Assembly (NCBI GenBank): GCA_002345745.1
Contig: DDWQ01000011.1
Coordinates: forward strand, 85,995 to 149,994
DNA length: 64,000 bases
Origin: Candidatus Moranbacteria bacterium UBA2282
Lineage (GTDB): Bacteria; Patescibacteriota; Minisyncoccia; Moranbacterales; UBA2206
Direction: 5' to 3'
The notes under the pieces are model-generated. The model was not told the origin of the DNA, did no database searches, and saw only the letters and a program-made list of their open reading frames with translations. Made by a program: the position numbers and the translations under genes. Below are positions 4,000 to 54,839 of this stretch, in pieces. Within the stretch, counting starts at the first letter, position 1; the number at the start of each line of letters is the position of its first letter.

Positions 4000-4004
4000 C
4001 TACT

Positions 4005-4370
4005 ATGCAACAACAAACTAAAATTATCTTATTTTTTCTGAGTCTGTTTCTAGCAAGCTCAGTCTATTTATTTTCCATTGATTCCAATTACAACAAAGCA
4101 GGAAATAACAATGACTGGTATGCACTATATTTCACCAATCCAAAATCAGATGACCTCAGCTTTGCTATTAAAAATTTTAGCAGCGAAACTAATTTTCACT
4201 GGGAAATTTTAGCTGACAATAAAAAAATAGCTGAACAAAATGTTAGCATTCAAACTGACGAAGAACTAGGATTCAATCCGACTGCAGTTGACACGGAAAT
4301 TAAAAAATATATCATCCGTGTTTCTGCTGGCAACATCACGCAAGAAATTTATAAAAATATAAAAAAATAA
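4005..4370 (+). CDS. Small hypothetical protein with an N-terminal signal/anchor
   Basis: 121-aa ORF with a hydrophobic N-terminus, tightly spaced between flanking genes. Confidence 0.35.
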   Translation: MQQQTKIILFFLSLFLASSVYLFSIDSNYNKAGNNNDWYALYFTNPKSDDLSFAIKNFSSETNFHWEILADNKKIAEQNVSIQTDEELGFNPTAVDTEIKKYIIRVSAGNITQEIYKNIKK

Positions 4371-4372
4371 TT

Positions 4373-5506: not shown

Positions 5507-5515
5507 ACAAAAATT

Positions 5516-38259: not shown

Positions 38260-39315
38260 TTAACCAAAATAATTCTTAATCTGTTTATATTTTTTATATA
38301 AAAAATTTGGAATTTTCCAACGCAGAGAATTGACGACGGAGGACAATTGTTTTTCTTTTTGAATAATTTCATCTTTTAGATGTTGTACTTTTTCTTCCCC
38401 AGCCTCTATTTCTCGCTCATTAGCTTGTGTTTTTTGCTTTTCATTCAATACCTCTTTAGTTTTTATTTCAATACTAATTTTATTTTCTATATTTATTTTA
38501 TTCATCATATCCATCGCATTTTTTATCGTTTTCAAGAAAAGATTATCATCAATCAAGCTTTTAGCTATTTCTAAATCCTTTAATTCATTGCTTTTCTTAA
38601 TAAAATATATTTTTCTATAAGATGGGTCTTGATTATCAAAAGGAAAAACCTCTGTATTATAAAAATAATTAAATTTCTGGTGATTACTATGGAGTTCATC
38701 TGACATATTTTCTTCAATCAAAAATTCCATCCCTAATAATAATTGCCACAAAAACAATCTGTTATTTTGTAGCTTCTGAAATGATACTGCCTTTTCTTCT
38801 AACAAATTTTCAAATTCAATCATTTCTGGCAAACCATTTTCTATATGCTCCTTGAGCCAAATATGATCCTCTCCATTATGTAGCATTTTATAATTTTCAT
38901 TTGCATTTATTTCTGCTTGCGCAACCGCTGGAGAGTAGAAAGGTGCCACTAGGACAACTCCTAATTTTGCAACTCGCAAGTTTTCCTCTAAAAAATTTTT
39001 TCTTTTTTCTTTTGGTATATGTTCAAAAACATCAGTAGAAACAACCCAGTCAAAACTTTCATCAACCAATGGCATATTGCAGCCATCCCCCTTGATAAAA
39101 TTTTCGTCCTCAGAATCAAGAAACGGATCGAGATAAAAGACATCATCCTCTGGAAAAAATTTTTTCATCCAGTTACCCCTACCACCCACATCAAGAATTT
39201 TTAATTTTTCATTACCTTTGCGATTTTTTTCTACAATATTCTGAATAGGTGCAAATCGTCCATACAAATGGAAAACCATTTCTTTTTTAAATTGTTCTTC
39301 TGCTATTTTTTCCAT
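38260..39315 (-). CDS. Class I SAM-dependent methyltransferase with a C-terminal coiled-coil region
   Basis: LDVGGRGNWM (motif I), DESFDWVVSTDVFEHIP, LRVAKLGVVLV. The C-terminal roughly 80 aa are K/E-rich and predicted helical. Confidence 0.7.
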   Translation of the reverse strand: MEKIAEEQFKKEMVFHLYGRFAPIQNIVEKNRKGNEKLKILDVGGRGNWMKKFFPEDDVFYLDPFLDSEDENFIKGDGCNMPLVDESFDWVVSTDVFEHIPKEKRKNFLEENLRVAKLGVVLVAPFYSPAVAQAEINANENYKMLHNGEDHIWLKEHIENGLPEMIEFENLLEEKAVSFQKLQNNRLFLWQLLLGMEFLIEENMSDELHSNHQKFNYFYNTEVFPFDNQDPSYRKIYFIKKSNELKDLEIAKSLIDDNLFLKTIKNAMDMMNKINIENKISIEIKTKEVLNEKQKTQANEREIEAGEEKVQHLKDEIIQKEKQLSSVVNSLRWKIPNFLYKKYKQIKNYFG

Positions 39316-40601
39316 AATGTTTCTATTTTTATTAATCCATTTTGGTTCTCTTCTTGAGAAATTATTTTAAATCCATAAAACCTATCCTTAAAATCAATTG
39401 GAGTTACACAATCCCAATTAAATAATGCTGCGGTAAATCTATAACTACCCGTGAAAAATTTATTTTCAATAATTACAAAATCAAAAGAGCCAAGACCTTC
39501 GATATAATCTATTATAAATTTAGAAGTTTTTGTATTTGGACCGGAAATATGAATTCCGTCTTGTGTATAAATAGCAACACCGAAGACAGGTTTTTCTATT
39601 TTCTTTTTTGCATTGTAATATATCCGCGCTACAATATCATCCCCTGTCTCAAAAACATTCTTTGCTTTCCCGTCCTTATCCAAAAATTCAACCTTAGTTA
39701 TTTCTATGACTTTACTTTTTCTTTCTTCGCTATCTTCTTTATTGATATTTTTTTTACCATCTTCTTCCTTTTTTTGCTCATCATACATCCTCTTTTCCTC
39801 ATCCGACATATTCTGATAGACATATTCATTGCCAACTTCTTCCGCTTTGCCAATTTTAACAATTTTTCCATTACGAAGCAACATTGCCCGATCGCAATAT
39901 CTTTGCACTACGGCGATATCATGAGTGACAATTATTACTGTTCTCCCCATACCTCGATATCTATTAAATTCTTCCAGACATTTCGATTGAAAATTTGAAT
40001 CTCCCACCGCCAAAACCTCATCCATAAGTAGTATATCACGATTAGCGTGAATGGACACCGAAAAAGCCAACCTCACCTGCATGCCGGAAGAATAGTTTTT
40101 CAATTTTTGGTCAATGAAGCGTTCCAGTTCAGAAAATTTCACAATGGAATCGAATTTCTTGTCGATTTGCTTTTTGGTCATCCCCAGCACTGTGGCGTTC
40201 AAATAGACATTATCCCGTCCGGAAAGCTCGGGATTGAAACCGATGCCCAACTCCAAAAAGGGTGAAATCATGCCATCAATCTTTACCCCGTGAAATTCCG
40301 CCTTAGGCGGACGGGCTCCGCCCGATTTCACTGGGGTGCCTTTCTTGGGTTTATCCGCCTGATAAATCCCCGCCAAAACCTTCAACAGCGTCGATTTTCC
40401 GCTGCCATTCCGACCAATGATGCCAAAAAATTCGCCCTTTTTCACCTCAAAAGAAACATCGTCTAATGCTTTGAATTCTTCGTAACCCCTCTTTTTACTA
40501 AAAACCGAAATAGCAGCTCCTCTTAGCGAGGAGATTTTTTCATGTGGTATTTTAAACGTCTTACTGACGTTTTTTACACTAATTGCGATGTCTTTATCCA
40601 T
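39303..40601 (-). CDS. wzt: ABC transporter ATP-binding protein of Wzt type, with a C-terminal carbohydrate-binding domain
   Basis: Walker A GRNGSGKST, signature SSGMQ, Walker B LLMDEVLAVGD. A roughly 170-aa C-terminal beta-rich extension. A roughly 20-aa GC-rich insertion lies after Walker A. Confidence 0.8.
   Translation of the reverse strand: MDKDIAISVKNVSKTFKIPHEKISSLRGAAISVFSKKRGYEEFKALDDVSFEVKKGEFFGIIGRNGSGKSTLLKVLAGIYQADKPKKGTPVKSGGARPPKAEFHGVKIDGMISPFLELGIGFNPELSGRDNVYLNATVLGMTKKQIDKKFDSIVKFSELERFIDQKLKNYSSGMQVRLAFSVSIHANRDILLMDEVLAVGDSNFQSKCLEEFNRYRGMGRTVIIVTHDIAVVQRYCDRAMLLRNGKIVKIGKAEEVGNEYVYQNMSDEEKRMYDEQKKEEDGKKNINKEDSEERKSKVIEITKVEFLDKDGKAKNVFETGDDIVARIYYNAKKKIEKPVFGVAIYTQDGIHISGPNTKTSKFIIDYIEGLGSFDFVIIENKFFTGSYRFTAALFNWDCVTPIDFKDRFYGFKIISQEENQNGLIKIETLWKK
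40287..40336. repeat. GC-rich nested-hairpin element inserted in frame in the wzt ATPase domain
   Basis: ccccgtgaaat tccgcc tta ggcgga cgggc tcc gcccg atttcactgggg. It encodes the extra KPKKGTPVKSGGARPPKAEF segment. Confidence 0.55.
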
Positions 40602-40652
40602 TGCTTAATAATACCTAATAAATGCCGAAAATACAATGATCCCTTACTTAAA

Positions 40653-40800
40653 AACCAAGATACAAGATAGTTAGTGAAGAAACAAGGTACAAGATACAAA
40701 CATCAAACAATATTCAATAATCAAATTTCAATATTCAAACTTTTTTGGTTATTGTCTTTTGGAATTTGTATCTTGTTTGGTACCTGTTTCTTGGTTATTG
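40653..40800. repeat. Long imperfect palindrome built from CCAAGATACAA/TTGTATCTTG units
   Basis: Left half ccaagatacaagata...caaggtacaagatacaaac; right half tttgtatcttgtttggtacctgtttcttgg. Confidence 0.55.
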
Positions 40801-40812
40801 GTAATTATTAGC

Positions 40813-41172
40813 CTATTTACCCTCTATTTTGTTTATGATGGTTGATAATATATTTTTTATCTCGTTTGCTTCTCGCTTGATGTCTTGCATACAATCTTTT
40901 AGCTCTGGGTTTGCTTCTTCAATAAGGTCTAGCCAGTGAATTGTTTCCTTGGCTTCTTTTCTAGCAATCTTCATTCGCATTATCAAATCTTTTTTGCCTA
41001 AAGAATCATTTGCTTCTCGATAATTTGCTCCAACAGAACCAGCCGAGCCTACAGCTTGCCCTGTTAGGCGATTGTTTATTGAATTTTTTGGCAAAGAAAT
41101 ACACAATCTAACTACCCGTTTTCCGAATTCAGTAGTTCTTTCCTCTAAATCAAATTTGCGATTATTTTCCAT
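40813..41172 (-). CDS. Four-helix-bundle protein (23S rRNA intervening-sequence protein family)
   Basis: 119 aa. AVGSAGSVGANYREA and KETIHWLDLIEE segments typical of this family. Confidence 0.7.
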   Translation of the reverse strand: MENNRKFDLEERTTEFGKRVVRLCISLPKNSINNRLTGQAVGSAGSVGANYREANDSLGKKDLIMRMKIARKEAKETIHWLDLIEEANPELKDCMQDIKREANEIKNILSTIINKIEGK

Positions 41173-41229
41173 AGATATTTTTTTAATGTTTGTTTTTTGT
41201 ATTTTGATGCTTGAAATTTGTTTGGTTAT

Positions 41230-41300
41230 TGTATCTTGGTGTTTGTATCTTATTTTTGCGTTTGTATCTTGCTTAGCGTTTGTATCTTAAGCATTATTTG
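41230..41300. repeat. Iteron-like direct repeats: 4 copies of GTTTGTATCTT spaced 15-18 bp apart
   Basis: ttgtatcttggt, gtttgtatcttat, gcgtttgtatcttgc, gcgtttgtatcttaa. Confidence 0.6.
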
Positions 41301-41321
41301 ATATTTCTTAGATATTATAGC

Positions 41322-42662
41322 CTATTTTTTAATAATTTTCCAATATCCTCCCTTGTCGGGACCAACCCTTTTTAGCAAATCTTTTTCCTTTAATTTTGAG
41401 ATATCTCTTTTAATAGTTTTTTCATTAACACCTGCCTTTTTGGCTATTTCTGGAATTGTAATTCTATTATTATTTCTAATAATTTCCACAACAATATCTT
41501 CTCGATTTTCAGGGACATTTTCAGGGACATTTTCAGGGACATTTTCTAATGCCATTCTTTTGAAAATTATAGAGAACCAATTCTCGTTGGTTTCAATTTT
41601 TGGATTTGGAAGACCATATTCTTTCATGGCTTTTTTCATCCGCAGAATTCCAGACCCTATTTTCTCCACCAAATCCATTCTCTGCATCAAGCCAAATAGA
41701 AGATTATTTCTGGACAAACTTCTTTTACCCAATTCTTTTATCGTCATTCCCCGCACTAGCCCTCCGGGATTAGTTATTTCAACTCGATCAGAAAAAATAT
41801 AAATCTGAATATTCGCACCTGTCACGAAATAGTTTCTGTGCGCAATTGCATTCAGGATTGCTTCGCGCAATGCGTCTTCTGGTAGTTCTAATTTTTCTTC
41901 TCGCGGTCCACCTTTTATGATAAATTCTGTGTTCAACTTTGAACGCAGATAATCCATGGCATTCTCATAATTGCTAAATAGGTCAGCATCAAATTCTTTT
42001 CGGTCCAATATTCTGTATTTTGTCCTTCCATAAAAAAGCACGCATGTAATCGTTGACTGCAAAAGAAACTTTGTAATATCATTGGAAAAAAGAAGTACAC
42101 CGGCATTTTTCATTTTATCATCAGAGACCAAATTAAGATTTGTCAAAATGTCGCGTGTTGGCAAAATTTTTCTTATATGAGATAGTCGTAAAAAGTTATT
42201 AAAAGATTTTTTATTTAAATCCTTTTTGATATCAAATTTTTCATTAACCCTCTCATCAAAAAGAACCAGGCCTTCTTTTTGAAAAAAATATTTGATTTCA
42301 TTTCTCGTAAGTTGCTGACTATTGGCTCCTTGGCGCAAGTAAAATTTTCCCACAATTGAATATGGTTTTTCTTTGCCCTCTGGGACATCAACAATCAAAA
42401 TACCCTCAATTTCTTGCAAATGTATGGTCATTTTCGGATCAAGATTTCTGCCAATAACCTGAATTTCTGATTTTAATTTGTTGGTAATTTTGATTTCTTT
42501 TTTTATTCCGGAATCAGTAATTCCAATAAATATCTTTCCCCCAGAAGCATTGGCAAAAGCACACATTTCTTTTCCAATTGTGGAACTATGCGACTCTTTA
42601 AATTCAATATTATAGCCTTCTCCTTGGCTGATATAAAATTCTAATTCTTTTTTCATTAACAT
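41322..42662 (-). CDS. AlbA_2 (Schlafen-like) plus HATPase_c_4 (RecG-C-like) plus wHTH putative ATP-dependent DNA-binding regulator
   Basis: N-terminal YNIEFKES...CAFANASGG (AlbA_2/divergent AAA). The C-terminal wHTH is RITIPEIAKKAGVNEKTIKRDISKLKE. It contains an ENVPENVPENVPEN repeat. Confidence 0.6.
   Translation of the reverse strand: MLMKKELEFYISQGEGYNIEFKESHSSTIGKEMCAFANASGGKIFIGITDSGIKKEIKITNKLKSEIQVIGRNLDPKMTIHLQEIEGILIVDVPEGKEKPYSIVGKFYLRQGANSQQLTRNEIKYFFQKEGLVLFDERVNEKFDIKKDLNKKSFNNFLRLSHIRKILPTRDILTNLNLVSDDKMKNAGVLLFSNDITKFLLQSTITCVLFYGRTKYRILDRKEFDADLFSNYENAMDYLRSKLNTEFIIKGGPREEKLELPEDALREAILNAIAHRNYFVTGANIQIYIFSDRVEITNPGGLVRGMTIKELGKRSLSRNNLLFGLMQRMDLVEKIGSGILRMKKAMKEYGLPNPKIETNENWFSIIFKRMALENVPENVPENVPENREDIVVEIIRNNNRITIPEIAKKAGVNEKTIKRDISKLKEKDLLKRVGPDKGGYWKIIKK
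41507..41546. repeat. 12-bp tandem repeat (3 units) inside a CDS, encoding (VPEN)n
   Basis: agggacattttc repeated three times. Confidence 0.8.
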
Positions 42663-42684
42663 TTTTTTACTTCTAATTTTTATT

Positions 42685-43548
42685 TTAGTTGCTTAGTGTC
42701 ACATTCACCTCTTTCAACTCATTGAAATCTTCCCATTCGATTAGATTGGTTTTTGAGAGAATTTTTTCAGCCTCCCTATTCTTCAGATGATAATTACAGC
42801 CGATATCATAATTAGGAACAGTCAATGAGGGAAATTCTTTAATAAAATAGAGTTTATTGTCATCACTATATAAAAACAAAAAGGATTTTATTGGTTTTAT
42901 TTTATTTATCAAACTAAGCCCGAAAATAAATTTGGAGTTTGTTTCGCGACCACCTGATGATCCGCCTCCACCTTTGCGAAAAACCTTCCTATCATCCTCC
43001 TCCCAAACAAAAATAGTATCATATGGATTTCGCCAATCCACATGATTCAAGGGAGACGGTAAATTATAATATCGACTCTTTTTAATTTCTACTCGTGGCT
43101 TAAACAACTTTTCATGATTTTTATATTTTTTCAATATTTTTTCTCTATATCGAGGCTCCAATTCGTTCTTGATGATATAGTCATCCAGTTCCTTTTTCAT
43201 TTCTTCTTTTTTCCAAACGGCCGTGTATTTATCCAGCCATTTTGCATACACCTCATTTCCCTCGCGATGATCAAATTCAGTAAAAAAATACTCATACAAG
43301 AGTTCCATATAGTGGGACTGAATTGGCATTCGTGTCTTTTCAACGTATTTCTTATTATTCCAAAATTTTGGATCGAGATTATCAATAATGATAGTAATGG
43401 TATATGGATTTTTATTTTTTAGTTTTTGAGCAATTGTTTTGTGATCATTAAGCACATCAAATGCATGCTCAGATATCGAAAAAATTTCCGGATTATATTC
43501 CTGACTCAGCTTGGATTTATTAATTTTAATGCTTTTATTTACTAACAC
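42685..43548 (-). CDS. Hypothetical protein (two-lobed, with an internal GGGGSSGG linker)
   Basis: 287-aa ORF with no recognisable motifs. The Gly-linker codons are locally GC-rich. Confidence 0.4.
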   Translation of the reverse strand: MLVNKSIKINKSKLSQEYNPEIFSISEHAFDVLNDHKTIAQKLKNKNPYTITIIIDNLDPKFWNNKKYVEKTRMPIQSHYMELLYEYFFTEFDHREGNEVYAKWLDKYTAVWKKEEMKKELDDYIIKNELEPRYREKILKKYKNHEKLFKPRVEIKKSRYYNLPSPLNHVDWRNPYDTIFVWEEDDRKVFRKGGGGSSGGRETNSKFIFGLSLINKIKPIKSFLFLYSDDNKLYFIKEFPSLTVPNYDIGCNYHLKNREAEKILSKTNLIEWEDFNELKEVNVTLSN

Positions 43549-43675
43549 ATTAATTGATAAGTTTGTTATAATGATATTATATCACCATACACAAAAACTG
43601 TCTAGTTCCAATTTTTTATATATTCAGGTTGAGAAGCACAGTGCTTAATTTGAAAGTTTAAATACGCTTGAAATA

Positions 43676-43745
43676 ACCAAGATACAATACTTAATTTAAA
43701 ATTTATAATTTAAAATTACTCTTTGGTTTATTGTATTTGTTTGAT
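43676..43745. repeat. Right-hand copy of the AACCAAGATACAA repeat plus a degenerate inverted partner
   Basis: aaccaagatacaatac ... attgtatttgtttg. The same 13-mer occurs at 40653. Confidence 0.5.
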
Positions 43746-43800
43746 AATTGATCCATTGAAAATTTATTCCGCATGTATTTTTCTGATATTGGGTCATTTT

Positions 43801-44190
43801 TTATTTTCTCTTTGAAAGATGATATATGATTATGTATACGCTGATGGCTCCATAGATAATTGACGAAAAGAATGCCACCGTGCCTTTTTCAATGGGAATC
43901 ATCCAATTGCTGGAATACGATGGAGCCATTAGAATCATCAGCATAGAAAGCGGAATCCAAACACGGGAAAATTTCCACCAAGTTTGATATACATCTTCTT
44001 TCATTTTATAGGTGATGAGAGAGAAAATAAATAATGGAATGATTATAACAAATATAAGCATAGCATCATGCATAGTATCCATGCAGTTGCTATATCCCTT
44101 GCCACCACATAAACCAAAAGTCCCAATCAAATTAAGAATAATCAGTAACGCGGAACCAACAAAAGAAGCTAGTATTGTCATTATTTTCAT
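43801..44190 (-). CDS. Small membrane protein (4 TM), hypothetical
   Basis: 129-aa hydrophobic ORF. Confidence 0.35.
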   Translation of the reverse strand: MKIMTILASFVGSALLIILNLIGTFGLCGGKGYSNCMDTMHDAMLIFVIIIPLFIFSLITYKMKEDVYQTWWKFSRVWIPLSMLMILMAPSYSSNWMIPIEKGTVAFFSSIIYGAISVYIIIYHLSKRK

Positions 44191-44213
44191 ATTTTTTATT
44201 TATTTTTAAAAAT

Positions 44214-44825
44214 TTAAAATTTTTTAAACATCCCAATTCCCCACCGCCTAATTCCAAAAATAATAATTATAAAGAGGACAACCAAGCTAACAAAAATTTC
44301 TCTTATAATCTGATTTTTATTTTTTTCATCACTCATTCTATTCTCCCATCTATTTTCTTTTTTATCAATAGCGTCCTTCACTACCTCAGCATAGGCAGTT
44401 GTTTTGGGGATAATGAAGGCATCCGCCAGTTTTGCTCCAATGGGAAATCTTGGAGCAATTTTTCTTGTCTCCGCAATCGAAGTGGCTTTATTTTTTTTGT
44501 GACTATGATTATCATTATCGCCATCACTTTGCGAATCATTTTCAATTCTAATCAAATCACTACTTGTCACTATACCATTGAGGATTGGCGCCACCTCATA
44601 TCCATCTCCATCCTCATCAATGCTCATTTTTGACGCACTGGCAAGATTGCTCGAAATATCTAACATCACTTTTGTTTTCGGAGTGGTGGGCATATTTTGA
44701 AAAGTGATTTTGTTGAGGAGTTCATCACCCCGCAATTCATCTACCGAAAAAGTGAACGTGCCATCGCCATAACCATCCATCATGATATTTTGAGTTGATC
44801 CTTCCTCAGAAAAAATATACTTCAC
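44214..44825 (-). CDS. Hypothetical protein with a C-terminal TM anchor
   Basis: 203-aa ORF with an acidic D/G-rich middle region and a C-terminal hydrophobic segment. Confidence 0.35.
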   Translation of the reverse strand: MKYIFSEEGSTQNIMMDGYGDGTFTFSVDELRGDELLNKITFQNMPTTPKTKVMLDISSNLASASKMSIDEDGDGYEVAPILNGIVTSSDLIRIENDSQSDGDNDNHSHKKNKATSIAETRKIAPRFPIGAKLADAFIIPKTTAYAEVVKDAIDKKENRWENRMSDEKNKNQIIREIFVSLVVLFIIIIFGIRRWGIGMFKKF

Positions 44826-44905
44826 ATCGCCGAATTGTTGATAGTATGTCCCCGGAATTTGTTCTTCAATTTGACCATCTTTATCAATGCCCGTGTGATT
44901 ACCAT

Positions 44906-44937
44906 AAAAAAAATCGGAGTCGAACTCCGATTTTTTG
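44906..44937 (-). terminator. Rho-independent terminator (bidirectional-capable)
   Basis: aaaaaaaatcggagt-cgaa-actccgatttttt: perfect 13-bp stem with A and T runs on both sides. Confidence 0.75.
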
Positions 44938-44956
44938 TATATTCAAGAAATTTTGA

Positions 44957-45289
44957 CTACGCACTTACCAAAGATGCTTTTTCTAATTTCACAATGCGAG
45001 TTTCATGATTGTCAGTGACGGTCTTTTTGGCCTTGTTTTCTAATTTTTCATCAATATTATCAAGACGGAGTTTTATATCCACAATATCTGTTTTTATATA
45101 CACAATATCCGACTTCATATCCACAATGTCAGACTTTATTTCATCAATATCTTCCAAAATCAAGTCAACAGTTTTCTTCACATCATTCAAGCCTTCACCA
45201 AAAACCTTGAAATCACTGCGAATATCCTCAAGCATTATTTCTACTTGAGCTTTAGGCATAAAGTCTTTATTTTCTACTTGTTCTTCCAT
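44957..45289 (-). CDS. Heptad-repeat coiled-coil protein
   Basis: DIDEIKS/DIVDMKS/DIVYIKT/DIVDIKL heptads encoded by 21-bp tandem DNA repeats. Confidence 0.45.
   Translation of the reverse strand: MEEQVENKDFMPKAQVEIMLEDIRSDFKVFGEGLNDVKKTVDLILEDIDEIKSDIVDMKSDIVYIKTDIVDIKLRLDNIDEKLENKAKKTVTDNHETRIVKLEKASLVSA
45075..45158. repeat. Four 21-bp tandem repeats inside a CDS
   Basis: atatccacaatatctgttttt, atatacacaatatccgacttc, atatccacaatgtcagacttt, atttcatcaatatcttccaaa. Confidence 0.75.
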
Positions 45290-45327
45290 ATCTCAATTTT
45301 ATCACATAAAAAATTCATGTCAAACTA

Positions 45328-47829
45328 CTATACTTTTGTCAAAAAGAAAATCAAACCTTTGCGCGCTACAAAAACCGCTATCAGTGAGGCAAAGATTTCG
45401 AAGACAATTTTTCCACTGCCACTGCCAGTTTCACTATTTTTCTTGATCACCTCTTCCGCCTGGGCAGTTTTAGCTAATTCAATATCCTGGCTCAACTTAT
45501 CAAAACCATTCTTCAAATTGGCAACGATTGAATTTTCATCACGACTATCATTACTACCGCTAACTTGCGGTTCACTGCTCTCAACAATTGCAAGTTGATT
45601 GTCATCTTCCTTCGAAGATTCTTGCTGATGTTTCTCGGTTTTTTTCTCGTGACTACTCTCAGCGACGACTTCTTGATTTTCTTCAATCACAGGCTCTTGC
45701 TCCTCCTGAATGTCTTGTGAGTCAGAATCTTGCTCGTCCTGAACCTCATTTTGAACAGTGGGATCAATTACCGTTTCGCCCGCAACTTCCACTGTGAATG
45801 CTTTTTGCGCGTCTGGCGTGGTCTTGCCAACAAGTGCCACCGTCGATTCCTGCGCGCTACCGTCCTCTTGTTCAGAGATTTCAGTTGTCTCAACCTTGAA
45901 ATCACCCTCGCCAGTTCCTTGGGTTAAAATTTTGTATTCACCGTCTATCGGATTGGGAATGGTCAAAAATTCATTCTCCGTCGCATAGCCGGAATAATAG
46001 GCGCCTTCAATTTCATCAAAAACCTCACCCGTCACAAAATCCTTCCCGACCCTTTTCCCATCCGGCGCAATGACTTGAATGTCGATTGGGGAGAAAACTT
46101 GCGTAATAAATATATTTTTAATCAAACCACTCTCAACTTTGATATCAGGTCTAATAGTTGTCAGAAGTTCCAACACATCTTTTTGTGCATCTGTTACAAT
46201 ACTTCGATGATCTGACGGCAGTTCAATTAAATTATCCGATGGTACATTTTCACTTTTGGATGAACTTAAAGGAACCGTGACATCTCCAGCATCATATCGA
46301 ATACCTCTATCACCAACAAAAACTTCAAATCCTAATGGATAACCATCAACCCAATATTTACCCATATCAGCACTTACAACATTTATTCCGCTAATTGTAT
46401 CTTTCCCCTTTGTGTTACCAATAATTTTATCATATTCAACCGCAGAAGTAAGCTTGAGAGCATTATTATTTAGCTTTTCCAAAAACTCATTATGAGGATA
46501 ACCAATTGGATATGATTTTAAATCATATCCATTATCGGCTTCATATAAATAATCATAGACTGGCAAAAGTTCCTGCAGAGAAGCAATTGGCCGATTGTGC
46601 ATATAATCAAATCTATCGGCAAAACCACCTTCCTCAGCTTCTTGAGTTACAATATGCTTCATAAAAATGTCCACCAGACTGAAAAACCAGCCATCACCAT
46701 CCCACTTCATATACGATTCAGGTGCACCAAGATTTGGAGTAGCCAGAGTAACCAGCTGGTCAACATCTCCCTGATAATAATCTGATTCAATATATTCTCG
46801 CACCAAAAGTCCACCCATCGAATGTGCTACGACATCAACTTTAGGCCAGTTAGTTACGATTTTTATCTCAGCAATTTTGCTTTTTAATTTCTTGGCATTT
46901 TCTATATTGCTATCTCGCCATTCGTAAGGAAAGATAAATAAATCTTTATCCGGTACATATCCATTATTAGCAAATTCGGTGTAGAGATTGTCATAGGTGT
47001 GAAAAACTGGATCGAGTTGCAATTTCCCATCTTTTTCCCAAGAGCCAAAAATTCCTGGAACAATTACAACTGGGTCGTGAAAACTTTTTTCTGGCAAAAA
47101 ATTAGAAAAATCAATATCGCCATCAATTTTTTCATAATAGCAAGACTGTCCACTGTAACATTTCTGCTGTGGTCCGTTAGCATCTCCCCACCAATTATAT
47201 TGAAAGTTTGGCAATGAATCTCCATCACCACGATAGACAACATCAGCAATTGCATTATTTTCAAATGTTGATCGATTCACTTTCACATCAGCAGAATTAA
47301 CATCGCCAATAAACATCACGACATCATTATCATGAAAATCACAACCTTCCGCATCTAGTGATCCACTATTTAGTTTAATGCCGCCATTATAAAAAGCATT
47401 CACAGCATTTATAATTGAATTGCCTTTCATCAGTTGAATAGAAGCACCCGCTCCGCTCATGTCCGTATTACGCATCACAATTTTACCGCCATCAACAGCA
47501 ATGGAATAGCTAGGTGCCCCGTCAGATTTTCTCAACTTCACATTATCTTTCAATGTTCCTGCAATAATCAAACTTCCATACACATCTACACCTCCGCCAT
47601 CGAAAGTTATTGTAACTCCTTTTTTTATTACTAAAGTTGCACCCTCATCAATAGACACATAAGATGTTATGGATTTATCAGTAGTCCATTCTTCATACCC
47701 AGTGATATGCTCGTTTCCATATTCATCAATTGTCTGCGAATGCACAATAAAATTCAGAGGTGAGATCGGAGCGAGGACAAGAACGATAACCAGAAAAACT
47801 CCGCAAAAAAAATTATTTATTCTTTGCAT
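45328..47829 (-). CDS. Large secreted protein: parallel beta-helix region plus LCAT/PGAP1-like alpha/beta-hydrolase (lipase/esterase) domain plus acidic low-complexity tail with a C-terminal anchor
   Basis: Signal peptide. Repeated G-x-I/V beta-helix rungs. VVIVPGIFGSW and the AHSMGG nucleophile elbow. The tail QDEQDSDSQDIQEEQE... ends in a hydrophobic segment. Confidence 0.6.
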   Translation of the reverse strand: MQRINNFFCGVFLVIVLVLAPISPLNFIVHSQTIDEYGNEHITGYEEWTTDKSITSYVSIDEGATLVIKKGVTITFDGGGVDVYGSLIIAGTLKDNVKLRKSDGAPSYSIAVDGGKIVMRNTDMSGAGASIQLMKGNSIINAVNAFYNGGIKLNSGSLDAEGCDFHDNDVVMFIGDVNSADVKVNRSTFENNAIADVVYRGDGDSLPNFQYNWWGDANGPQQKCYSGQSCYYEKIDGDIDFSNFLPEKSFHDPVVIVPGIFGSWEKDGKLQLDPVFHTYDNLYTEFANNGYVPDKDLFIFPYEWRDSNIENAKKLKSKIAEIKIVTNWPKVDVVAHSMGGLLVREYIESDYYQGDVDQLVTLATPNLGAPESYMKWDGDGWFFSLVDIFMKHIVTQEAEEGGFADRFDYMHNRPIASLQELLPVYDYLYEADNGYDLKSYPIGYPHNEFLEKLNNNALKLTSAVEYDKIIGNTKGKDTISGINVVSADMGKYWVDGYPLGFEVFVGDRGIRYDAGDVTVPLSSSKSENVPSDNLIELPSDHRSIVTDAQKDVLELLTTIRPDIKVESGLIKNIFITQVFSPIDIQVIAPDGKRVGKDFVTGEVFDEIEGAYYSGYATENEFLTIPNPIDGEYKILTQGTGEGDFKVETTEISEQEDGSAQESTVALVGKTTPDAQKAFTVEVAGETVIDPTVQNEVQDEQDSDSQDIQEEQEPVIEENQEVVAESSHEKKTEKHQQESSKEDDNQLAIVESSEPQVSGSNDSRDENSIVANLKNGFDKLSQDIELAKTAQAEEVIKKNSETGSGSGKIVFEIFASLIAVFVARKGLIFFLTKV

Positions 47830-48097
47830 TTTTTCTTTGATTATATTTAATTATTAAAAAGATATTTATAATTGGCCAAATTATTAGTGAAAAATATTGC
47901 AACCATAACAAGTCAAAACTAATAAACATTCTTGATCCAATATTAACCAAAAAAGACAAGTTAGCTAAAACTGAAAAAACAACAAGTGTTTTAAATATTT
48001 TTTTAGACAAAGCAAAAACAATTACCGCCACTATCGCCGACAATATTAGTAGTGCCATTGTTATTTGCATGTCCAGCACCGGATTCGAAAAAAACAT
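47813..48097 (-). CDS. Small membrane protein, hypothetical
   Basis: 94 aa with 3 TM helices. Confidence 0.3.
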   Translation of the reverse strand: MFFSNPVLDMQITMALLILSAIVAVIVFALSKKIFKTLVVFSVLANLSFLVNIGSRMFISFDLLWLQYFSLIIWPIINIFLIIKYNQRKNAKNK

Positions 48098-48187
48098 ATT
48101 TTTTTATTTTAATTTAATTACATTTTTATTATACTCCATCCCTCAAAAATACAAAACGCTTAAACACGCTTTGCCACACATATATTC

Positions 48188-48208
48188 TGTAGGGGTTTCA
48201 CCCCTACA
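48188..48208. repeat. REP-B copy (TGTAGGGGT-TTC-ACCCCTACA), immediately 3' of RAYT-2
   Basis: 9-bp perfect arms with a 3-nt loop. Confidence 0.75.
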
Positions 48209-48210
48209 GA

Positions 48211-48849
48211 TTATTCTTCCAGCAAATATCTTCTCATTTCATTTCTGCGTTGATTTATTTCCTTCGCATTTACATCAACAAATTTACCATAATCACTTTT
48301 ATTCTTAAACTGATTTAGAATTATTTCTGGATTGCATAACTTTTCAACATCATCACCCAAATAGCTTTTCAAACTTGACCTAAATTCTTTTACATCATGA
48401 ATAACATTATTACCATTCACATAAGCTGACAGATGCAATAAATATTCATTACTATTTATATGTATAGCCTTAAATCTTCCTTGAAATAATGAACCATTTC
48501 TTTTATTTCTATGATTAAAATATCCTGTATATCCACCGCCTATGCGTTTCATAAATTCCGATATACCACCATCACTCAACTGCTTTAGTATAAAATGAAA
48601 ATGATTTGGAAGCAGATTGTAGACAATTATTTCCACTAACGCACCATTCTGTAGGGGTTTCACCCCTACATCATTTACTTTACTTTTTATATATAAACTA
48701 ATGATGGGTTCGATTTCATTAAATTCTTTCATTGATTTAAGAAACCTGGCATAATCATATTTATCCAAAAAAATATCTCGCTTCTCCACTCCACGATTAA
48801 ACACGTGATAATATTCGCCATTTACAAATTCAAAAGAAAAGTTTCCCAT
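48211..48849 (-). CDS. REP-associated tyrosine transposase (RAYT), copy 2
   Basis: EYYHVFNRG, PNHFHFILK (HuH), GRFKAIHINSNEYLLHLSAYVNGN. Flanked by REP-B copies, and contains one REP-B in frame. Confidence 0.75.
   Translation of the reverse strand: MGNFSFEFVNGEYYHVFNRGVEKRDIFLDKYDYARFLKSMKEFNEIEPIISLYIKSKVNDVGVKPLQNGALVEIIVYNLLPNHFHFILKQLSDGGISEFMKRIGGGYTGYFNHRNKRNGSLFQGRFKAIHINSNEYLLHLSAYVNGNNVIHDVKEFRSSLKSYLGDDVEKLCNPEIILNQFKNKSDYGKFVDVNAKEINQRRNEMRRYLLEE
48650..48670. repeat. REP-B copy inside the RAYT-2 coding sequence, in frame
   Basis: tgtaggggtttcacccctaca encodes ...VGVKPLQNG... within the protein. Confidence 0.75.
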
Positions 48850-48874
48850 CTTTTTTGTTTTAGTTTTTTATATC

Positions 48875-48895
48875 TGTAGGGGTGAAACCCCTACA
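48875..48895. repeat. REP-B copy (inverted-loop orientation), 5' of RAYT-2
   Basis: tgtaggggtgaaacccctaca. Confidence 0.75.
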
Positions 48896-48934
48896 TTATT
48901 CCACTATTTAAGTTCTACTCCCTGAAGACATATC

Positions 48935-50107
48935 TCAATCATTGATCTTTTCAACTTCATCCTTCCCACAATTTGGACAATGCGATAAATATTTTATTTT
49001 AAACTCCCCACAATGTTTGCATCTTTCTTTTAACTGAAGTCCGCAATTAGGACAAAAGGTGTGTTGCGAATCTAAAGAAAAAGAGCATTTGGGACATTTT
49101 TTATCCTTCAGTCTTCTGATTGCAATTTTTGCAGAACTAAAAACTTTCTTTTGGATATAATAGACAATTCCACCAAAAATCACAATTACGATAATCACGG
49201 AACCATAATAAATTACATACCGCAAAAATGGCACTTCCATAAAGAATTTAAAAATCCTCTCCAACCATTCTTTCGGCAGGATATCATAAAGAAAAACGCC
49301 AACCACCTGCAAAAACAGTATAGCAAATGCTGTCGTTGTTGCGGTTAGAATTATCGTATAGGGACTATTCTTTCTTTTCAATTTAAAATAGAAAAACACG
49401 GAGAATGCGAAAAATGGCAGAACAAATACTAATGTAAGCAAAAATACCTTAAATTTAAGCCAAGCAACTTTATTTAAAAAATAATCTGTTGCTTCTTTGT
49501 GACTCTGCTCAATTGATTTAATAGAATCACTTATTTGGGAAATAAAAATACTTTTTTTGCTTTCCAAGGATTTGGTTTCTTCTTGAATGGCGCTAGCTTT
49601 GGCTCTCGTGCTTGTGATTTCATTTTTGATATTCTCCTTGTTCGCTATTGCCTTTTCACCAGCCATTTTCTCTTGCAAACTCAGATCATATTCTTTGATT
49701 AACTTTTGGATACTGTTTTCCAAGCCCCTAACCTCGCTTTTATTCGATTCTATGCCAGTATTTAATAAAACTATTTCCTGCAATTGCGGCTTTATGCCAT
49801 CATACTTCTCATCTAATCCAAATTTTCTATCGACATCATTGAATGAATTTTGGCAGATCGAATATTTTGTCAGGTTTTTGGGATTATGTATGGAATTCAT
49901 AACACATCCAGATGGAGCAATCGGTTTTTCAGGAATTCTCGCCAAATCAGAAAAAATTGTCTCCCCGACACCAATCACAAAAGTTACCATCACAATTAAG
50001 AGAATATATCCTAATTTTGAAGTTCTTTTTTCACTTATTTCTTCATAAGAATTTTGATCATTTTTGCCAATCTTTTTTTCTAATTGTTTTTCATTTTGCA
50101 GATTCAT
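48935..50107 (-). CDS. Membrane protein with a coiled-coil N-terminal region and a C-terminal double zinc-ribbon
   Basis: CPKCSFSL...CPNCG...CKHCG...CPNCG (four CxxC pairs). 4-5 TM helices. Confidence 0.5.
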   Translation of the reverse strand: MNLQNEKQLEKKIGKNDQNSYEEISEKRTSKLGYILLIVMVTFVIGVGETIFSDLARIPEKPIAPSGCVMNSIHNPKNLTKYSICQNSFNDVDRKFGLDEKYDGIKPQLQEIVLLNTGIESNKSEVRGLENSIQKLIKEYDLSLQEKMAGEKAIANKENIKNEITSTRAKASAIQEETKSLESKKSIFISQISDSIKSIEQSHKEATDYFLNKVAWLKFKVFLLTLVFVLPFFAFSVFFYFKLKRKNSPYTIILTATTTAFAILFLQVVGVFLYDILPKEWLERIFKFFMEVPFLRYVIYYGSVIIVIVIFGGIVYYIQKKVFSSAKIAIRRLKDKKCPKCSFSLDSQHTFCPNCGLQLKERCKHCGEFKIKYLSHCPNCGKDEVEKIND

Positions 50108-50139
50108 TTTTTTATTGCTATTTAATAAATTAGTAATTT

Positions 50140-50160
50140 TGTAGGGGTGAAACCCCTACA
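50140..50160. repeat. REP-B copy
   Basis: tgtaggggtgaaacccctaca. Confidence 0.75.
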
Positions 50161-50181
50161 AAATTATTTCTTGCTTCGATC

Positions 50182-50958
50182 CTAGATATCTTCCGCAATG
50201 CGTGGTGCTAATTTGCGGTAGGACCAGATGCTGAAGCCGAAAGCTCCGAAGACAATCGAAACAAAAACAGCATACTGATTAAAGCTGGCGAAATGATTAT
50301 TGATGAGTGATTCTTTGGTGAAATGGATGATGAAGGCCAAAGGATTAAGCAGAATTAGAGTGTGATATTTGGCTGGCAAAGTTGACAAGGGATAGATGAT
50401 TGGTGAGCCATACATAATAATCATCAAAAGCACCTCCCAAATCATTGAGAGGTCGCGAAATTTCACATAGAGCGGTGCGGTTATTAGAGCAAAAGATAGG
50501 ACGATAATATAGATGAAGATTGAAAACAGCAGGAACATTCCAATGGCTGGAAGACTTGGCATAAAACCCTTAACCGCAAAAAAGAAAATAATCACTACCA
50601 GATTCATCAAAAATATCATCGTGGCATTGATAGTTGACGCTAAAATGATAGTCCAACGCGGGACATAAATTTTCGTCACTAATTGCGACTTGCTCAATAA
50701 TGAATTCATACCAGCATTAGTGCCTTCGGCAAAAAAATAGAACATCATCAGAGCCACAAGAAGTTGCAAAGAATAGGTGTCCACACCTCCCGTTCTTGGA
50801 TTGAAAACAGATGAGAAAACAAAATTCAAAATCGCAAAAGTTAAAAGCGGTTTAAGCAATGCCCACAAATAACCCAAAAAACTACCATGATAGCGTAGCT
50901 TGAAATCAGTCTTTGCTAACATCCAGATTAGCTCTTTATAATTTTCGTGATGACGCAT
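50182..50958 (-). CDS. wzm: ABC-2 type polysaccharide exporter permease (Wzm/KpsM/TagG-like)
   Basis: LAKTDFKLRYHGSFLGYLWALLKP N-terminal signature. 6 TM helices. 258 aa. Confidence 0.75.
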   Translation of the reverse strand: MRHHENYKELIWMLAKTDFKLRYHGSFLGYLWALLKPLLTFAILNFVFSSVFNPRTGGVDTYSLQLLVALMMFYFFAEGTNAGMNSLLSKSQLVTKIYVPRWTIILASTINATMIFLMNLVVIIFFFAVKGFMPSLPAIGMFLLFSIFIYIIVLSFALITAPLYVKFRDLSMIWEVLLMIIMYGSPIIYPLSTLPAKYHTLILLNPLAFIIHFTKESLINNHFASFNQYAVFVSIVFGAFGFSIWSYRKLAPRIAEDI

Positions 50959-51020
50959 AGCGTCTAGTCTATAAAGCCTATAAAGTCTATAAAGTCCTTA
51001 AAGCCTTACTAATTAAATTA
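50959..51020. repeat. 9-bp periodic array (GTCTATAAA-type units)
   Basis: gtctataaa gcctataaa gtctataaa gtccttaaa gccttac. Confidence 0.6.
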
Positions 51021-51368
51021 TTATTTCAATTGCTTGATGAAACCCGAAAGCATCTTAGAAATTTCTAATGATTTCCCGTACATAGTTTCGAAACTTATTT
51101 TATCAATATAGTCTAAATCTGAAGCTAAGTAAAGCATTGAGCGAACTTCACCACAAGATCCCTTTGCTATGAATAAAAATCTTCCAAGTTCTTTGTCACC
51201 TTTACGTTCATATCCCTCTGCAATGTTATTCATTATTGAAACCGCAGCTCTTTGAATTTGATCTCTAAAGGAAAAGTCCCTACTTAATTTAAAAGCCCTA
51301 TAAACATCCAGCGTGAGTACGCGCGCCTTTTGCCAAGCGATAATATCTTCAAATTTTTCTATTGCCAT
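51021..51368 (-). CDS. Four-helix-bundle protein (23S rRNA IVS protein family), second copy
   Basis: 115 aa. IAEGYERKGDKE and GSCGEVRSMLYLA motifs. Confidence 0.7.
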   Translation of the reverse strand: MAIEKFEDIIAWQKARVLTLDVYRAFKLSRDFSFRDQIQRAAVSIMNNIAEGYERKGDKELGRFLFIAKGSCGEVRSMLYLASDLDYIDKISFETMYGKSLEISKMLSGFIKQLK

Positions 51369-51410
51369 TCTTTTGACTTTATGAACTTTATGGGCTTGAT
51401 GGACTTTCTA
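51369..51410. repeat. 9-bp periodic array (GACTTT-type units)
   Basis: cttttgact ttatgaact ttatgggct tgatggact ttc. Confidence 0.55.
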
Positions 51411-53551: not shown

Positions 53552-53663
53552 AATAATGTAGTCTTTAAAGTCATAAAGTTGAAAGTCCTTAAAGTCTATA
53601 AAGTCGAAAGCTTTACGGGCTTGACGGACTTTTGGACTTGATAGACTTTACAGACTTTTAGAC
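53552..53663. repeat. Intergenic palindromic array of twelve 9-bp units (AAAGTC half, then GACTTT half)
   Basis: gtctttaaa gtcataaag ttgaaagtc cttaaagtc tataaagtc gaaagcttt acgggcttg acggacttt tggacttga tagacttta cagactttt agactt. Confidence 0.65.
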
Positions 53664-54839
53664 TTAGTTAACTTTCCTATAAATTTCATCAATCTTTTGC
53701 GCCGAATTTTTCCAACTAAATGAGGCGGCGCGTTTTTTATTATTTTCACCTTTCACACGTGCCTCCTGTGGATTTTGTGCTAAATACAAAATACCCTCCG
53801 TAATTCCTTCGGCTGACGGCGCGCAGAAATAGCCACCCTCGCCCAGATAATTGCGATTGTTAGCTTTATCAAAACACACCACTGGCAATCCCGCGGACAT
53901 ATAATTCAACATTTTACCGCTGGCTTGATTAGTATCGGAATTCTTCGGATCAATCGCCACGTCAGCTACACAATTAAAAGCTGGCAAGTCGAAATAATTT
54001 AGTGGGCTCACCACTCGTACAAATTTTTCCAACTTATTCTCCCGCACAAACTGGACAGCATAATGATCTGGAAAGCCACCAATCAAAAAGAAAATGTTCG
54101 AATTTTGTTTCACTGTCAATTCAATCGCTCGAAAAAGATAGTCGATGCCTTTGTTTGGCACCAATCCTCCCGAATAGACCACAACAAATTTATCAGCTGG
54201 AATTTCCAGCTCTTTTCGAAGTTCATTTTTGTCCTGCTTTAAATTAAAACTATCTAGATTAGTTCCGTCCAGTATCACTTCGACGCTTTCCTTGTTTTTT
54301 CTGGCATCTTTTATGGTTGCTAAATTTTCCCAAGAACTGACCACCGCCCAATCTCCCAGACTATTGATGAATCTTTCAACTATCTGAAAAAACCATTTCA
54401 AGCCTTTTTTTAGATAACCATGAGAAACCATCTCACCAGTCAAACTGCCATGAAAATCAGCTACTAATTTTATTTTTCTCCAAAAAAGAATTTTCTGTAC
54501 AAGGAAGCCGATCAAAACTCCTTCATGCAAATGACCGTGAATAATGTCTGGCTTTTGTGTACGTGCCAAAAAAAGAACTTTTTTAATAAGCATCAGATCC
54601 AAAATGATTTTTTGCCAATCCGGACCAGCTTCCAATTTTTTATACCAAAAAAGCAAGCGACGGATTCTCCGCACATCAATTTTGGTTTCAATTTCAGCTG
54701 AAATATCTTTACCAATATGATAGGTGGCAATTGTAATTTGATTGCCCAGCTTTTCCAAAGCCAGTGCTTCTTCCAAAATCCGAATATGTGTTCCGCGATC
54801 AGAAAAAAATGGCGTAGGAGCAATAACAAGAATTTTCAT
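53664..54839 (-). CDS. GT4-family glycosyltransferase
   Basis: MKILVIAPTPFFSDRGTHIR N-terminus. C-terminal GKMLNYMSAGLPVVCFD. Confidence 0.8.
   Translation of the reverse strand: MKILVIAPTPFFSDRGTHIRILEEALALEKLGNQITIATYHIGKDISAEIETKIDVRRIRRLLFWYKKLEAGPDWQKIILDLMLIKKVLFLARTQKPDIIHGHLHEGVLIGFLVQKILFWRKIKLVADFHGSLTGEMVSHGYLKKGLKWFFQIVERFINSLGDWAVVSSWENLATIKDARKNKESVEVILDGTNLDSFNLKQDKNELRKELEIPADKFVVVYSGGLVPNKGIDYLFRAIELTVKQNSNIFFLIGGFPDHYAVQFVRENKLEKFVRVVSPLNYFDLPAFNCVADVAIDPKNSDTNQASGKMLNYMSAGLPVVCFDKANNRNYLGEGGYFCAPSAEGITEGILYLAQNPQEARVKGENNKKRAASFSWKNSAQKIDEIYRKVN

Follow-up and report, generated by a model that had tools for sequence, protein, structure and literature searches.

The window analysed here is a stretch of 64,000 nucleotides (nt) from Candidatus Moranbacteria bacterium UBA2282 (assembly GCA_002345745.1, contig DDWQ01000011.1, positions 85,995 to 149,994), and the feature under study comprises three genes and a family of short repeats between its positions 40653 and 43745, which an original prediction had read as one integrated element or defence module of about 3 kb. 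The gene setting was taken from a near-identical contig (L001), whose genes were annotated with Pfam. Between 36.8 and 51.4 kb every gene lies on the minus strand, and the order of transcription is epimerase, 4HB2, wzm, DZR protein, RAYT-like Y1 transposase, a lipase-like protein of 833 amino acids (aa), three small proteins, p287, AlbA_2, 4HB1, wzt and methyltransferase, with 4HB1 and 4HB2 being two small four-helix-bundle (4HB) genes (Table 1). The region lies within a polysaccharide locus, as marked by the ATP-binding cassette (ABC) exporter genes wzm and wzt, and Wzm homologues at 90–94% identity are annotated as Candidatus Moranbacteria. Scans with profile hidden Markov models (HMMs) confirmed the three predicted proteins of 119, 446 and 287 aa together with their domain assignments.

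As the explanation that fits best as a whole, we consider it probable that the predicted element merges two independent accessory units in the wzm-wzt island of this Moranbacteria-like genome of the Candidate Phyla Radiation (CPR). Unit 1 would be a discrete cassette of about 650 bp (~40650–41300), composed of a tandem CAAGATACAA-type 5' block, an open reading frame (ORF) of the S23p family and an inverted-complement 3' block; unit 2 is the pair of p287 and AlbA_2.

Table 1. Coordinates of the genes, repeat regions and promoters in the window
Feature	Position	Strand	Remarks
Hypervariable wzm-wzt island (wzt at 39303-40601, wzm at 50182-50958)	40602-50181	-	gene content varies across relatives
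Region A	40644-40812	-	3' repeat block of the 4HB1 cassette
4HB1, 119 aa, four-helix-bundle	40813-41172	-	PF05635 1.2e-14; TIGR02436 2.3e-21
Region B	41173-41300	-	5' repeat block of the 4HB1 cassette
Promoter-like TTGGAA-18-TATAAT	41314-41343	-	10/12 positions; weak evidence; just 5' of the cassette's 5' repeats
AlbA_2 protein, 446 aa	41322-42662	-	SLFN_AlbA_2 (Schlafen-like) + HATPase_c_4 + winged helix-turn-helix (wHTH), COG2865 type
12-nt tandem repeat, perfect, 3.5 copies	41505-41546		encodes (ENVP)n, AlbA_2 linker before the wHTH
p287, 287 aa	42685-43548	-	uncharacterised enzyme-like family, motif GGSGSSGxRE
Sigma-70-type promoter TAGACA-17-TGaTATAAT before p287	43576-43604	-	11/12 positions plus upstream TG; best match of the region; conserved in L008
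Region C	~43660-43750	-	apparently degenerate ORF-less inverted pair, 4HB1-type repeat units
Second cassette	50959-51407	-	4HB2 flanked by inverted arrays of CATAAAGTC / GACTTTATAG
4HB2, 115 aa	51021-51368	-	second four-helix-bundle gene
ORF-less hairpin, 4HB2-type units	53552-53668	-	p391-GT393 spacer, next upstream of 4HB2; -29.6 kcal/mol, z -4.73

Related loci place all three genes in accessory DNA. The wzm-wzt island of L008 measures 14 kb and contains p287, AlbA_2, an extra MNT-HEPN pair, 4HB1, an AlbA_2 fragment and remnants of wzt, and in L113, the Wzm of which is 90% identical, the interval holds the lipase-like gene, the RAYT and others without p287, AlbA_2 and 4HB1. Because their presence and arrangement differ among L008, L113 and the window, we regard p287, AlbA_2 and 4HB1 as accessory; the 287-aa protein, absent from L113, is not the product of a housekeeping gene. 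The earlier view of an integrated element or defence module was thus loosely right about accessory DNA in a variable island and its defence-like flavour, but its boundaries could not be upheld, and no HMM set of a known defence system was matched as a system.

Repeats and folding of the 4HB1 cassette

Scanning the window for the exact 13-mer AACCAAGATACAA located it in direct orientation at 40653–40665 and 43675–43687, the second copy one base before the position 43676 given originally. With up to one mismatch five copies are present in the 64-kb window where 0.15 are expected, and the 9-mer core AAGATACAA occurs nine times (1.29 expected), eight of them within 40657–43687, in both orientations and spread over the three intergenic regions A, B and C. 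Regions A and B flank 4HB1, which is bracketed by six or seven core copies, and the inverted copies reported at 40766–40800 are indeed present. The two regions are linked by a 45-nt direct repeat (40734–40778 and 41211–41255, 82% identity) and by a 67-nt inverted repeat (40677–40743 and 41185–41251). Region B is a CA-rich leader with four tandem AAGATACAAAC units at 41229, 41243, 41262 and 41280 (span 41229–41288). On the sense (minus) strand, region A consists of a second copy of the 5'-type units (~40745–40800), a loop and an inverted arm (~40650–40717), which contains the 13-mer at 40653 and in which a profile of the 3' inverted repeat matches 40678–40717 (E 5e-7). Region C, with a single unit that carries the 13-mer at 43675, its imperfect inverted partner TTGGTTTATTGTATTTG at ~43724–43745 and 14 nt that are 100% complementary to 41227–41240, looks like a decayed hairpin of this repeat family without an ORF; in the alignment its counterpart is missing at the equivalent place in L008.

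That a 3-kb integrated element or defence cassette ends at the direct 13-mers of 40653 and 43675, which would be att-like sites or a target duplication, is in our view very improbable. The two copies are exact and the genes enclosed by them are accessory and missing from L113, but they were picked from at least eight copies in both orientations, and this makes the bounding direct repeats a selective reading. Moreover, the repeats travel with 4HB genes alone, p287/AlbA_2 pairs occur elsewhere without them, and L008 has no copy upstream of p287. The Pfam annotation of the near-identical contig shows no integrase or recombinase in or beside the region, the sole transposase-like gene being the Y1_Tnp 5 kb away, and no shift in GC content marks the region. 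An empty site with a single 13-mer, as expected for such an element, was not seen in the relatives; L113 is without the genes and without enrichment of the motif. The tandem units, which had also been taken for iterons, are in our reading the terminal repeats of the cassette, and an iteron-controlled replicon was rejected, library scans giving no Rep-family match among the proteins of the region.

Folding predictions connect the two repeat blocks around 4HB1. Region A forms a hairpin at 40645–40790 (-32.1 kcal/mol, z -3.25), region B by itself is unstructured (-4.2 kcal/mol) and the fold of region C is no better than that of shuffled sequence (-8.5 kcal/mol, z 0.37). When 40640–41300 was folded, regions A and B paired in the minimum-energy as well as the centroid structure and closed the ORF by a terminal stem (z -3.74). 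The 3' arm has two alternative partners, since region A folds locally and also pairs with region B. For the duplex of the two 4HB1 flanks we obtained z -9.5, and the 5'/3' flank duplex reached z -3.6 to -9.7 in 7 of 11 cassettes; as a control, 53 genes of the window gave a median z of -0.33, and only two genes flanked by repetitive extragenic palindromic (REP) sequences fell below -3.5. In regions A and C a pattern scan revealed no canonical intrinsic terminator, and an Rfam scan of 40400–44000 with E up to 1 gave a chance small nucleolar RNA as its sole match.

The protein encoded by 4HB1 is a member of the family known as 23S_rRNA_IVP, S23p or TIGR02436, and by inspection against PMC3936711 the SxxxNxxE core of the S23p motif is present as SVGANYRE. 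It has more than 3500 homologues, and the 120 best listed are all at least 71% identical. With a ratio of nonsynonymous to synonymous substitution rates (dN/dS) of 0.04–0.09 at a dS of 0.9 to >2, i.e. near saturation, the gene is under strong purifying selection. Its non-coding flanks are still recognisable across the same divergence, and the fact that they stayed recognisable while the synonymous sites saturated argues that they are functional too.

4HB cassettes in other operons and their likeness to intervening sequences

To place the cassette in a wider context, we fetched 4HB1 homologues with 73–91% aa identity from other contigs, and the same repeat family was found to flank them in at least five clearly different CPR gene contexts. 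The homologue and its repeats occupy the atpA-atpG spacer of an ATP synthase operon in L114, have NYN and Laminin_G genes on their two sides in L096, lie among giant Laminin_G proteins in L121 and belong to another arrangement of the wzt-lipase island in L120. The cassette in L104 is part of a diversity-generating retroelement (DGR) locus (2763–6400), between an Lcl_C-type target gene and a separate bAvd and adjoining the reverse transcriptase. Tandem AlbA_2 paralogues (460 and 457 aa), a 4HB1 cassette and a 187-aa C-terminal AlbA_2 fragment are present in L088 (817–5215), where intact and near-identical ORF-less CAAGATACAA-type hairpins stand right after the first paralogue and after the fragment. 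The same units flank the 4HB1 orthologue of L008 and bracket the inserted MNT-HEPN pair. In all fetched 4HB1 loci the 5' flank is made of CAAGATACAA / AATAACCAAG-type units and the 3' flank of their complement, TTTGTATCTTGGTTATT-type, and when the window was aligned with L008, L088, L096 and L104, no similarity extended beyond the repeat blocks. In a search of 1.03 Mb (121 loci and the window) with a 3' repeat profile, the only matches lay next to 4HB1 genes or, inside 4HB1 loci, in hairpins without an ORF. We are highly confident that the repeats belong to the 4HB cassette.

The distribution also bears on two other functions that could be assigned to the repeats. They might be operators, bound by the wHTH of the adjacent AlbA_2 protein and controlling 4HB1, wzt and p287, and tandem spaced units do lie between AlbA_2 and the next gene; AlbA_2 genes or fragments also adjoin the 4HB1 cassettes in the window, L008 and L088, and hairpins follow the AlbA_2 paralogues of L088. 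We nevertheless regard operators as improbable, as the same repeats flank 4HB1 without a nearby AlbA_2 in L114, L096, L104, L120 and L121 and the arrangement is that of long complementary arms and not of a promoter-proximal operator. Hardly credible at all is an integron-like cassette array with the hairpins as attC-like sites after each ORF, although successive ORFs of L088 and L008 (AlbA_2, MNT-HEPN, 4HB, AlbA_2 fragment) are indeed followed by a hairpin or repeat block: none of the loci examined has an integron integrase, and the ends of the hairpins were seen on inspection to depart from the attC R'/R'' consensus (GTTRRRY / RYYYAAC). To our knowledge, integrons are not known in CPR.

Some details of these loci were observed in addition. 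At the ORF-less hairpins of L088, the stop codon TAA belongs to the first repeat unit. The MNT (95 aa) and HEPN (131 aa) genes of L008 (10420–11430) lie between AlbA_2 and 4HB1 with one repeat block on each side, and after the 4HB1 cassette a remnant of the wzt leader and first codons (11950–12000) is followed by further insertions, wzt fragments and then an intact wzt. In L114 the order of the ATP synthase genes is broken by two small extra genes, a GIY-YIG ORF between atpF and atpH (537–818) and the 4HB1 cassette between atpA and atpG (3001–3381).

The second cassette of the window, that of 4HB2, has the same architecture as the 4HB1 cassette with a different repeat sequence, and BLASTP detected no similarity between 4HB2 and 4HB1. 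A closing stem is present in its minimum-energy and centroid folds with an overall z of -0.83, which is not significant, and the duplex of its flanks has a z of -3.6. The epimerase gene (Epim) and wzm are only 5 nt apart in L112, which is a clean empty site for this cassette; L113 has the cassette with conserved flanks, and L008 has an unrelated spacer of 95 nt at its position. Shorter or longer versions of the ORF-less hairpin of the p391-GT393 spacer are present in the orthologous spacers of L112 and L113. Units of the 4HB2 type (AAGTCCATAAAGTC) were also seen in L113 (19280–19330) upstream of wzt, at a site without a 4HB gene.

These spacers raise the question whether the hairpins are ordinary intergenic punctuation, such as terminators or RNA-processing or stabilising structures, with 4HB genes beside or inside them and nothing mobile. 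Three relatives have, in orthologous spacers, hairpins without an ORF that are built of tandem units and vary by gain and loss of units, which would fit, and so would region A as a stable hairpin downstream of a stop codon. We still consider punctuation unlikely, because a single specific repeat sequence stays with a single 4HB subfamily in unrelated operons across different CPR lineages at saturated synonymous sites, the 4HB2 cassette is a clean insertion relative to L112, and different 4HB subfamilies carry different, self-complementary repeats.

For the 4HB cassette as a discrete element, a mechanism can be proposed by analogy to the intervening sequences (IVS) of rRNA, and we do so with moderate confidence. 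The flanks of the transcript would form a long stem enclosing the 4HB1 ORF, which RNase III may cleave as it does in rRNA, and the local hairpin after the ORF would compete for the same 3' arm. With the stem cleaved, the element would be able to live within operons at little cost.

Several points weigh against the interpretation as two units with a mobile, RNA-processed cassette. Cleavage by RNase III and even transcription are predictions, and neither a target-site duplication nor a transposase for the cassette was identified. The argument for mobility comes from the distribution in the compared sequences and from one clean case of presence and absence (4HB2 against L112). The sample of 4HB1 contexts is small, about eight, and three or four of these are islands related to one another or neighbourhoods of AlbA_2. 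The duplex test with fixed windows is not passed by L121 and L008, their 3' arms being located further downstream, and a 4HB2-like gene in L071 showed no pairing of its flanks. Repeat-built hairpins can also be stable, vertically inherited features of a spacer, as that between p391 and GT393 in the three relatives. To call region C a remnant is interpretive, since its fold is weak and the repeat profile missed it. Finally, AlbA_2 is located downstream of p287 in only about half of the closest p287 relatives.

The cassettes share many properties with the S23p-type IVS known from Leptospira, Coxiella burnetii, Xanthomonas and Brucella (PMC4990558). Common to both are the PF05635 ORF, terminal inverted repeats that enclose it in a stem (predicted in our case), short direct repeats in tandem immediately before the start codon (here the four AAGATACAAAC units), the existence of short ORF-less and long ORF-containing forms, and a sporadic distribution that suggests horizontal spread. 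In the 23S rRNA IVS of Coxiella, which carries an S23p ORF, RNase III cuts the terminal stem, and the ORF is preceded by tandem heptamers (GACAGAT) of variable copy number (PMC4990558). They differ in location, as the IVS sit in rRNA helices and the cassettes described here in protein-coding spacers of polysaccharide export, ATP synthase, DGR and surface-protein loci. The Coxiella ORF is moreover decaying and probably untranslated (PMC4990558), whereas 4HB1 is strongly constrained (dN/dS <0.1). We therefore call the cassette an IVS-like variant and not a member, because both cassettes of the window lie between protein-coding genes and not in rRNA.

For over 30 years it has been an open question where rRNA IVS and their S23p ORFs come from and what purpose they serve (PMC4990558), and the idea that they are mobile elements comes from Ralph and McClelland, as cited in the same article. 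ORFs of the 23S_rRNA_IVP family have been reported in rRNA insertions of CPR (PMC11270868) and inside cas operons (PMC3936711); a description of non-rRNA 4HB cassettes with conserved terminal repeats was not found in the open-access literature. If such a cassette, its terminal repeats conserved and its protein under strong constraint, also resides in spacers of housekeeping operons, e.g. between atpA and atpG, the element is not tied to rRNA and its protein is functional, and it would now be possible to test mobility and RNA processing on defined pairs of filled and empty sites. For annotation it follows that such repeats in CPR genomes should not be read as island boundaries or iterons. It could also be, although this is speculative and we would not expect it, that S23p/4HB cassettes are widespread semi-autonomous mobile elements of CPR that colonise operon hairpins and rRNA genes, with the 4HB protein, a relative of Avd, serving their spread or maintenance, for instance by binding the terminal stem or recruiting a reverse transcriptase. 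The rRNA IVS would then be a special case of a more general parasite of operon spacers. As a separate and equally speculative possibility, p287 would be the first member of a new enzyme fold, working with AbiEii-type nucleotidyltransferase toxins.

The p287-AlbA_2 unit

The second unit (42685–43604 and 41322–42662) appears to be separate from the 4HB1 cassette and has its own predicted sigma-70 promoter. AlbA_2 starts 22 nt past the stop codon of p287 in the same direction, and other p287/AlbA_2 loci (L005, L010/L051, L039) are without the repeat family; the pair recurs in another context in L005, with 71% and 33% identity. The 446-aa protein shares the full architecture of COG2865-type AlbA_2/HATPase_c_4/wHTH proteins, which are annotated as ‘RecG-like’ or ‘putative transcriptional regulator’, and we know of no member with an established function. 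It matches phrog_12156 over its full length (8e-80), and its PADLOC matches are at domain level only, to models associated with prokaryotic Argonautes (pAgo) and to CARF/wHTH models. Between the window and L008 the AlbA_2 proteins are 66% identical, p287 and 4HB1 83–85%, and dS amounts to 0.90 for both p287 and 4HB1 and to 2.1 for AlbA_2. As AlbA_2 is far more diverged than its neighbours, this suggests its rapid evolution or the replacement by a paralogue. The protein has 442 aa on the near-identical contig and 446 aa in the window, and the 12-nt tandem repeat is likely to be the site of this difference. At the position of the (ENVP)n run, the AlbA_2 homologue of L005 has an (EKVG)n run, and the variation in linker length could be slippage-prone.

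The family of p287 comprises about 120 clusters, mostly from CPR lineages with distant relatives in metagenome-assembled genomes of other phyla. Among 59 diverse members the segment GGSGSSGxRE is the most conserved; residues R159, G193, S198 and R201 are invariant and D122, P164, Y227, N231 and N252 nearly so. The GGGGSSGG stretch, which had been regarded as a linker, lies in this segment and is not a linker. In the AlphaFold model, which has a predicted local distance difference test score (pLDDT) of 94.8 and a predicted template modelling score (pTM) of 0.86, the motif is found between a β-strand and the N-terminus of a helix, a placement that would be typical of anion or phosphate binding. 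The window protein has no match in Pfam, NCBIfam, PADLOC and PHROGs, nor have the 59 members in Pfam, PADLOC and PHROGs, and PDB sequences searched with a profile yielded no match with an E below 0.36. A structure search likewise returned, despite the confident model, no significant match with Foldseek, neither against the PDB (best E 0.23, template modelling (TM) score 0.16) nor against BFVD (best E 0.014, probability 0.12). EEP nucleases, Rai1/DXO and RtcA recur among the insignificant matches and may serve as a lead only. A well-conserved and confidently modelled protein with a link to AbiE and no match in domain libraries or, at significance, by Foldseek in PDB and BFVD is a good target for structural and functional work.

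The neighbours of p287 were counted in 62 non-redundant loci; for the locus scan alignment A1 was too diverse and the closer set A2 was used. Directly upstream of p287, AbiEii is present in 13 of the 62 loci, itself preceded by a gene of ~200 aa without a Pfam match, and the reading frames of AbiEii and p287 often overlap or nearly abut, with the pairing also occurring in other phyla. Adjacent to p287 are AAA_14/DUF4143 ATPases in 12 and Fic in 7 loci, and downstream of it AlbA_2 in 6 and PDDEXK_3 in 3. Distant homologues from other phyla (L036, L044) also adjoin nucleotidyltransferases of the AbiEii type, one homologue is located within a PIN/MazE/AbiEii/transposase cluster, another beside a cas gene and another beside a phage-type YopX gene. 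Judged by these neighbours, p287 is a mobile accessory gene that is found in toxin-antitoxin and defence surroundings and whose partners are interchangeable; its pairing with AlbA_2 is lineage-restricted. With low confidence we propose that it might be a phosphate- or nucleotide-binding enzyme in a conflict module of the toxin-antitoxin or defence type. The AbiE system (AbiEi/AbiEii, a type IV toxin-antitoxin and abortive-infection system) is thus related to p287 by neighbourhood; AbiE genes are absent from the window, and among the described components of AbiE there is no p287.

In about 10 of the 62 loci, p287 is located next to wzm and wzt or in the interval between them. An enzyme of the glycan pathway was considered on this ground and found less likely, as toxin-antitoxin genes intervene and many contexts are unrelated to glycan synthesis. 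In L025, L027 and L028 a small PDDEXK_3 (PF13366) gene is located between p287 and wzt, where 4HB1 is found in the window (~8850–9290 in L025 and L027). It overlaps the stop codon of p287 and may be another family of hitchhiker genes.

More narrowly, p287 and AlbA_2 could form a dedicated anti-phage system of two genes with AlbA_2 as nucleic-acid-sensing ATPase and p287 as effector, which would be compatible with our explanation of the repeats. The co-directional, closely spaced genes behind their own promoter, the recurrence of the pair in L005, the abundance of toxin-antitoxin and mobile genes in the island and the fast divergence of AlbA_2 all speak for it. In contrast, AlbA_2 follows p287 in a small minority of the loci counted above and occurs in tandem without p287 in L088. 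The PADLOC-DB 2.0 scan, too, matched no defined system and gave no meaningful match for p287 and 4HB1. We thus hold such a dedicated system to be doubtful, if worth keeping in mind.

Further elements and genes of the island

Two other classes of elements resemble the cassettes in part. REP/RAYT systems and miniature inverted-repeat transposable elements (MITEs) have in common with them short, hairpin-forming intergenic repeats and near-identical ORF-less copies within one locus, as in L088, and a genuine REP/RAYT pair is present 5 kb away in the same island. Its REP sequence GTAGGGGTnnnACCCCTAC (four copies, 48189–50159) is unrelated to CAAGATACAA. REP sequences are linked to a Y1 transposase and form one compact palindrome, whereas the CAAGATACAA repeats are linked to a 4HB gene and form long arrays of units of ~10 nt. 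The bAvd proteins of DGRs belong to a four-helix-bundle fold family common to 4HB, and the 4HB1 cassette of L104 lies directly beside bAvd; this DGR has a separate, dedicated bAvd gene (PF22296) alongside 4HB1. A DGR at the region itself was rejected, as no reverse transcriptase (RVT) gene is present in the 21 kb around it, no pair of template and variable repeats lies near the 4HB copies of the window, and the eight mismatches of the 45-nt direct repeat are, by inspection, not adenine-specific.

Four exact REP-like palindromes GTAGGGGT(TTC/GAA)ACCCCTAC were observed at 48189–48207, 48651–48669, 48876–48894 and 50141–50159. They flank the RAYT-like gene of 212 aa (Y1_Tnp, 48211–48849, minus strand) and the adjoining DZR gene, with one copy inside the RAYT ORF, and the RAYT is kept in the same island of L008 and L113. 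At the other end of the island, wzt encodes a Wzt_C carbohydrate-binding domain and overlaps the start of the Methyltransf_11 gene by 13 nt (39303–39315), and wzt with Wzt_C together with the methyltransferase fits an ABC-transporter-dependent glycan pathway with terminal modification.

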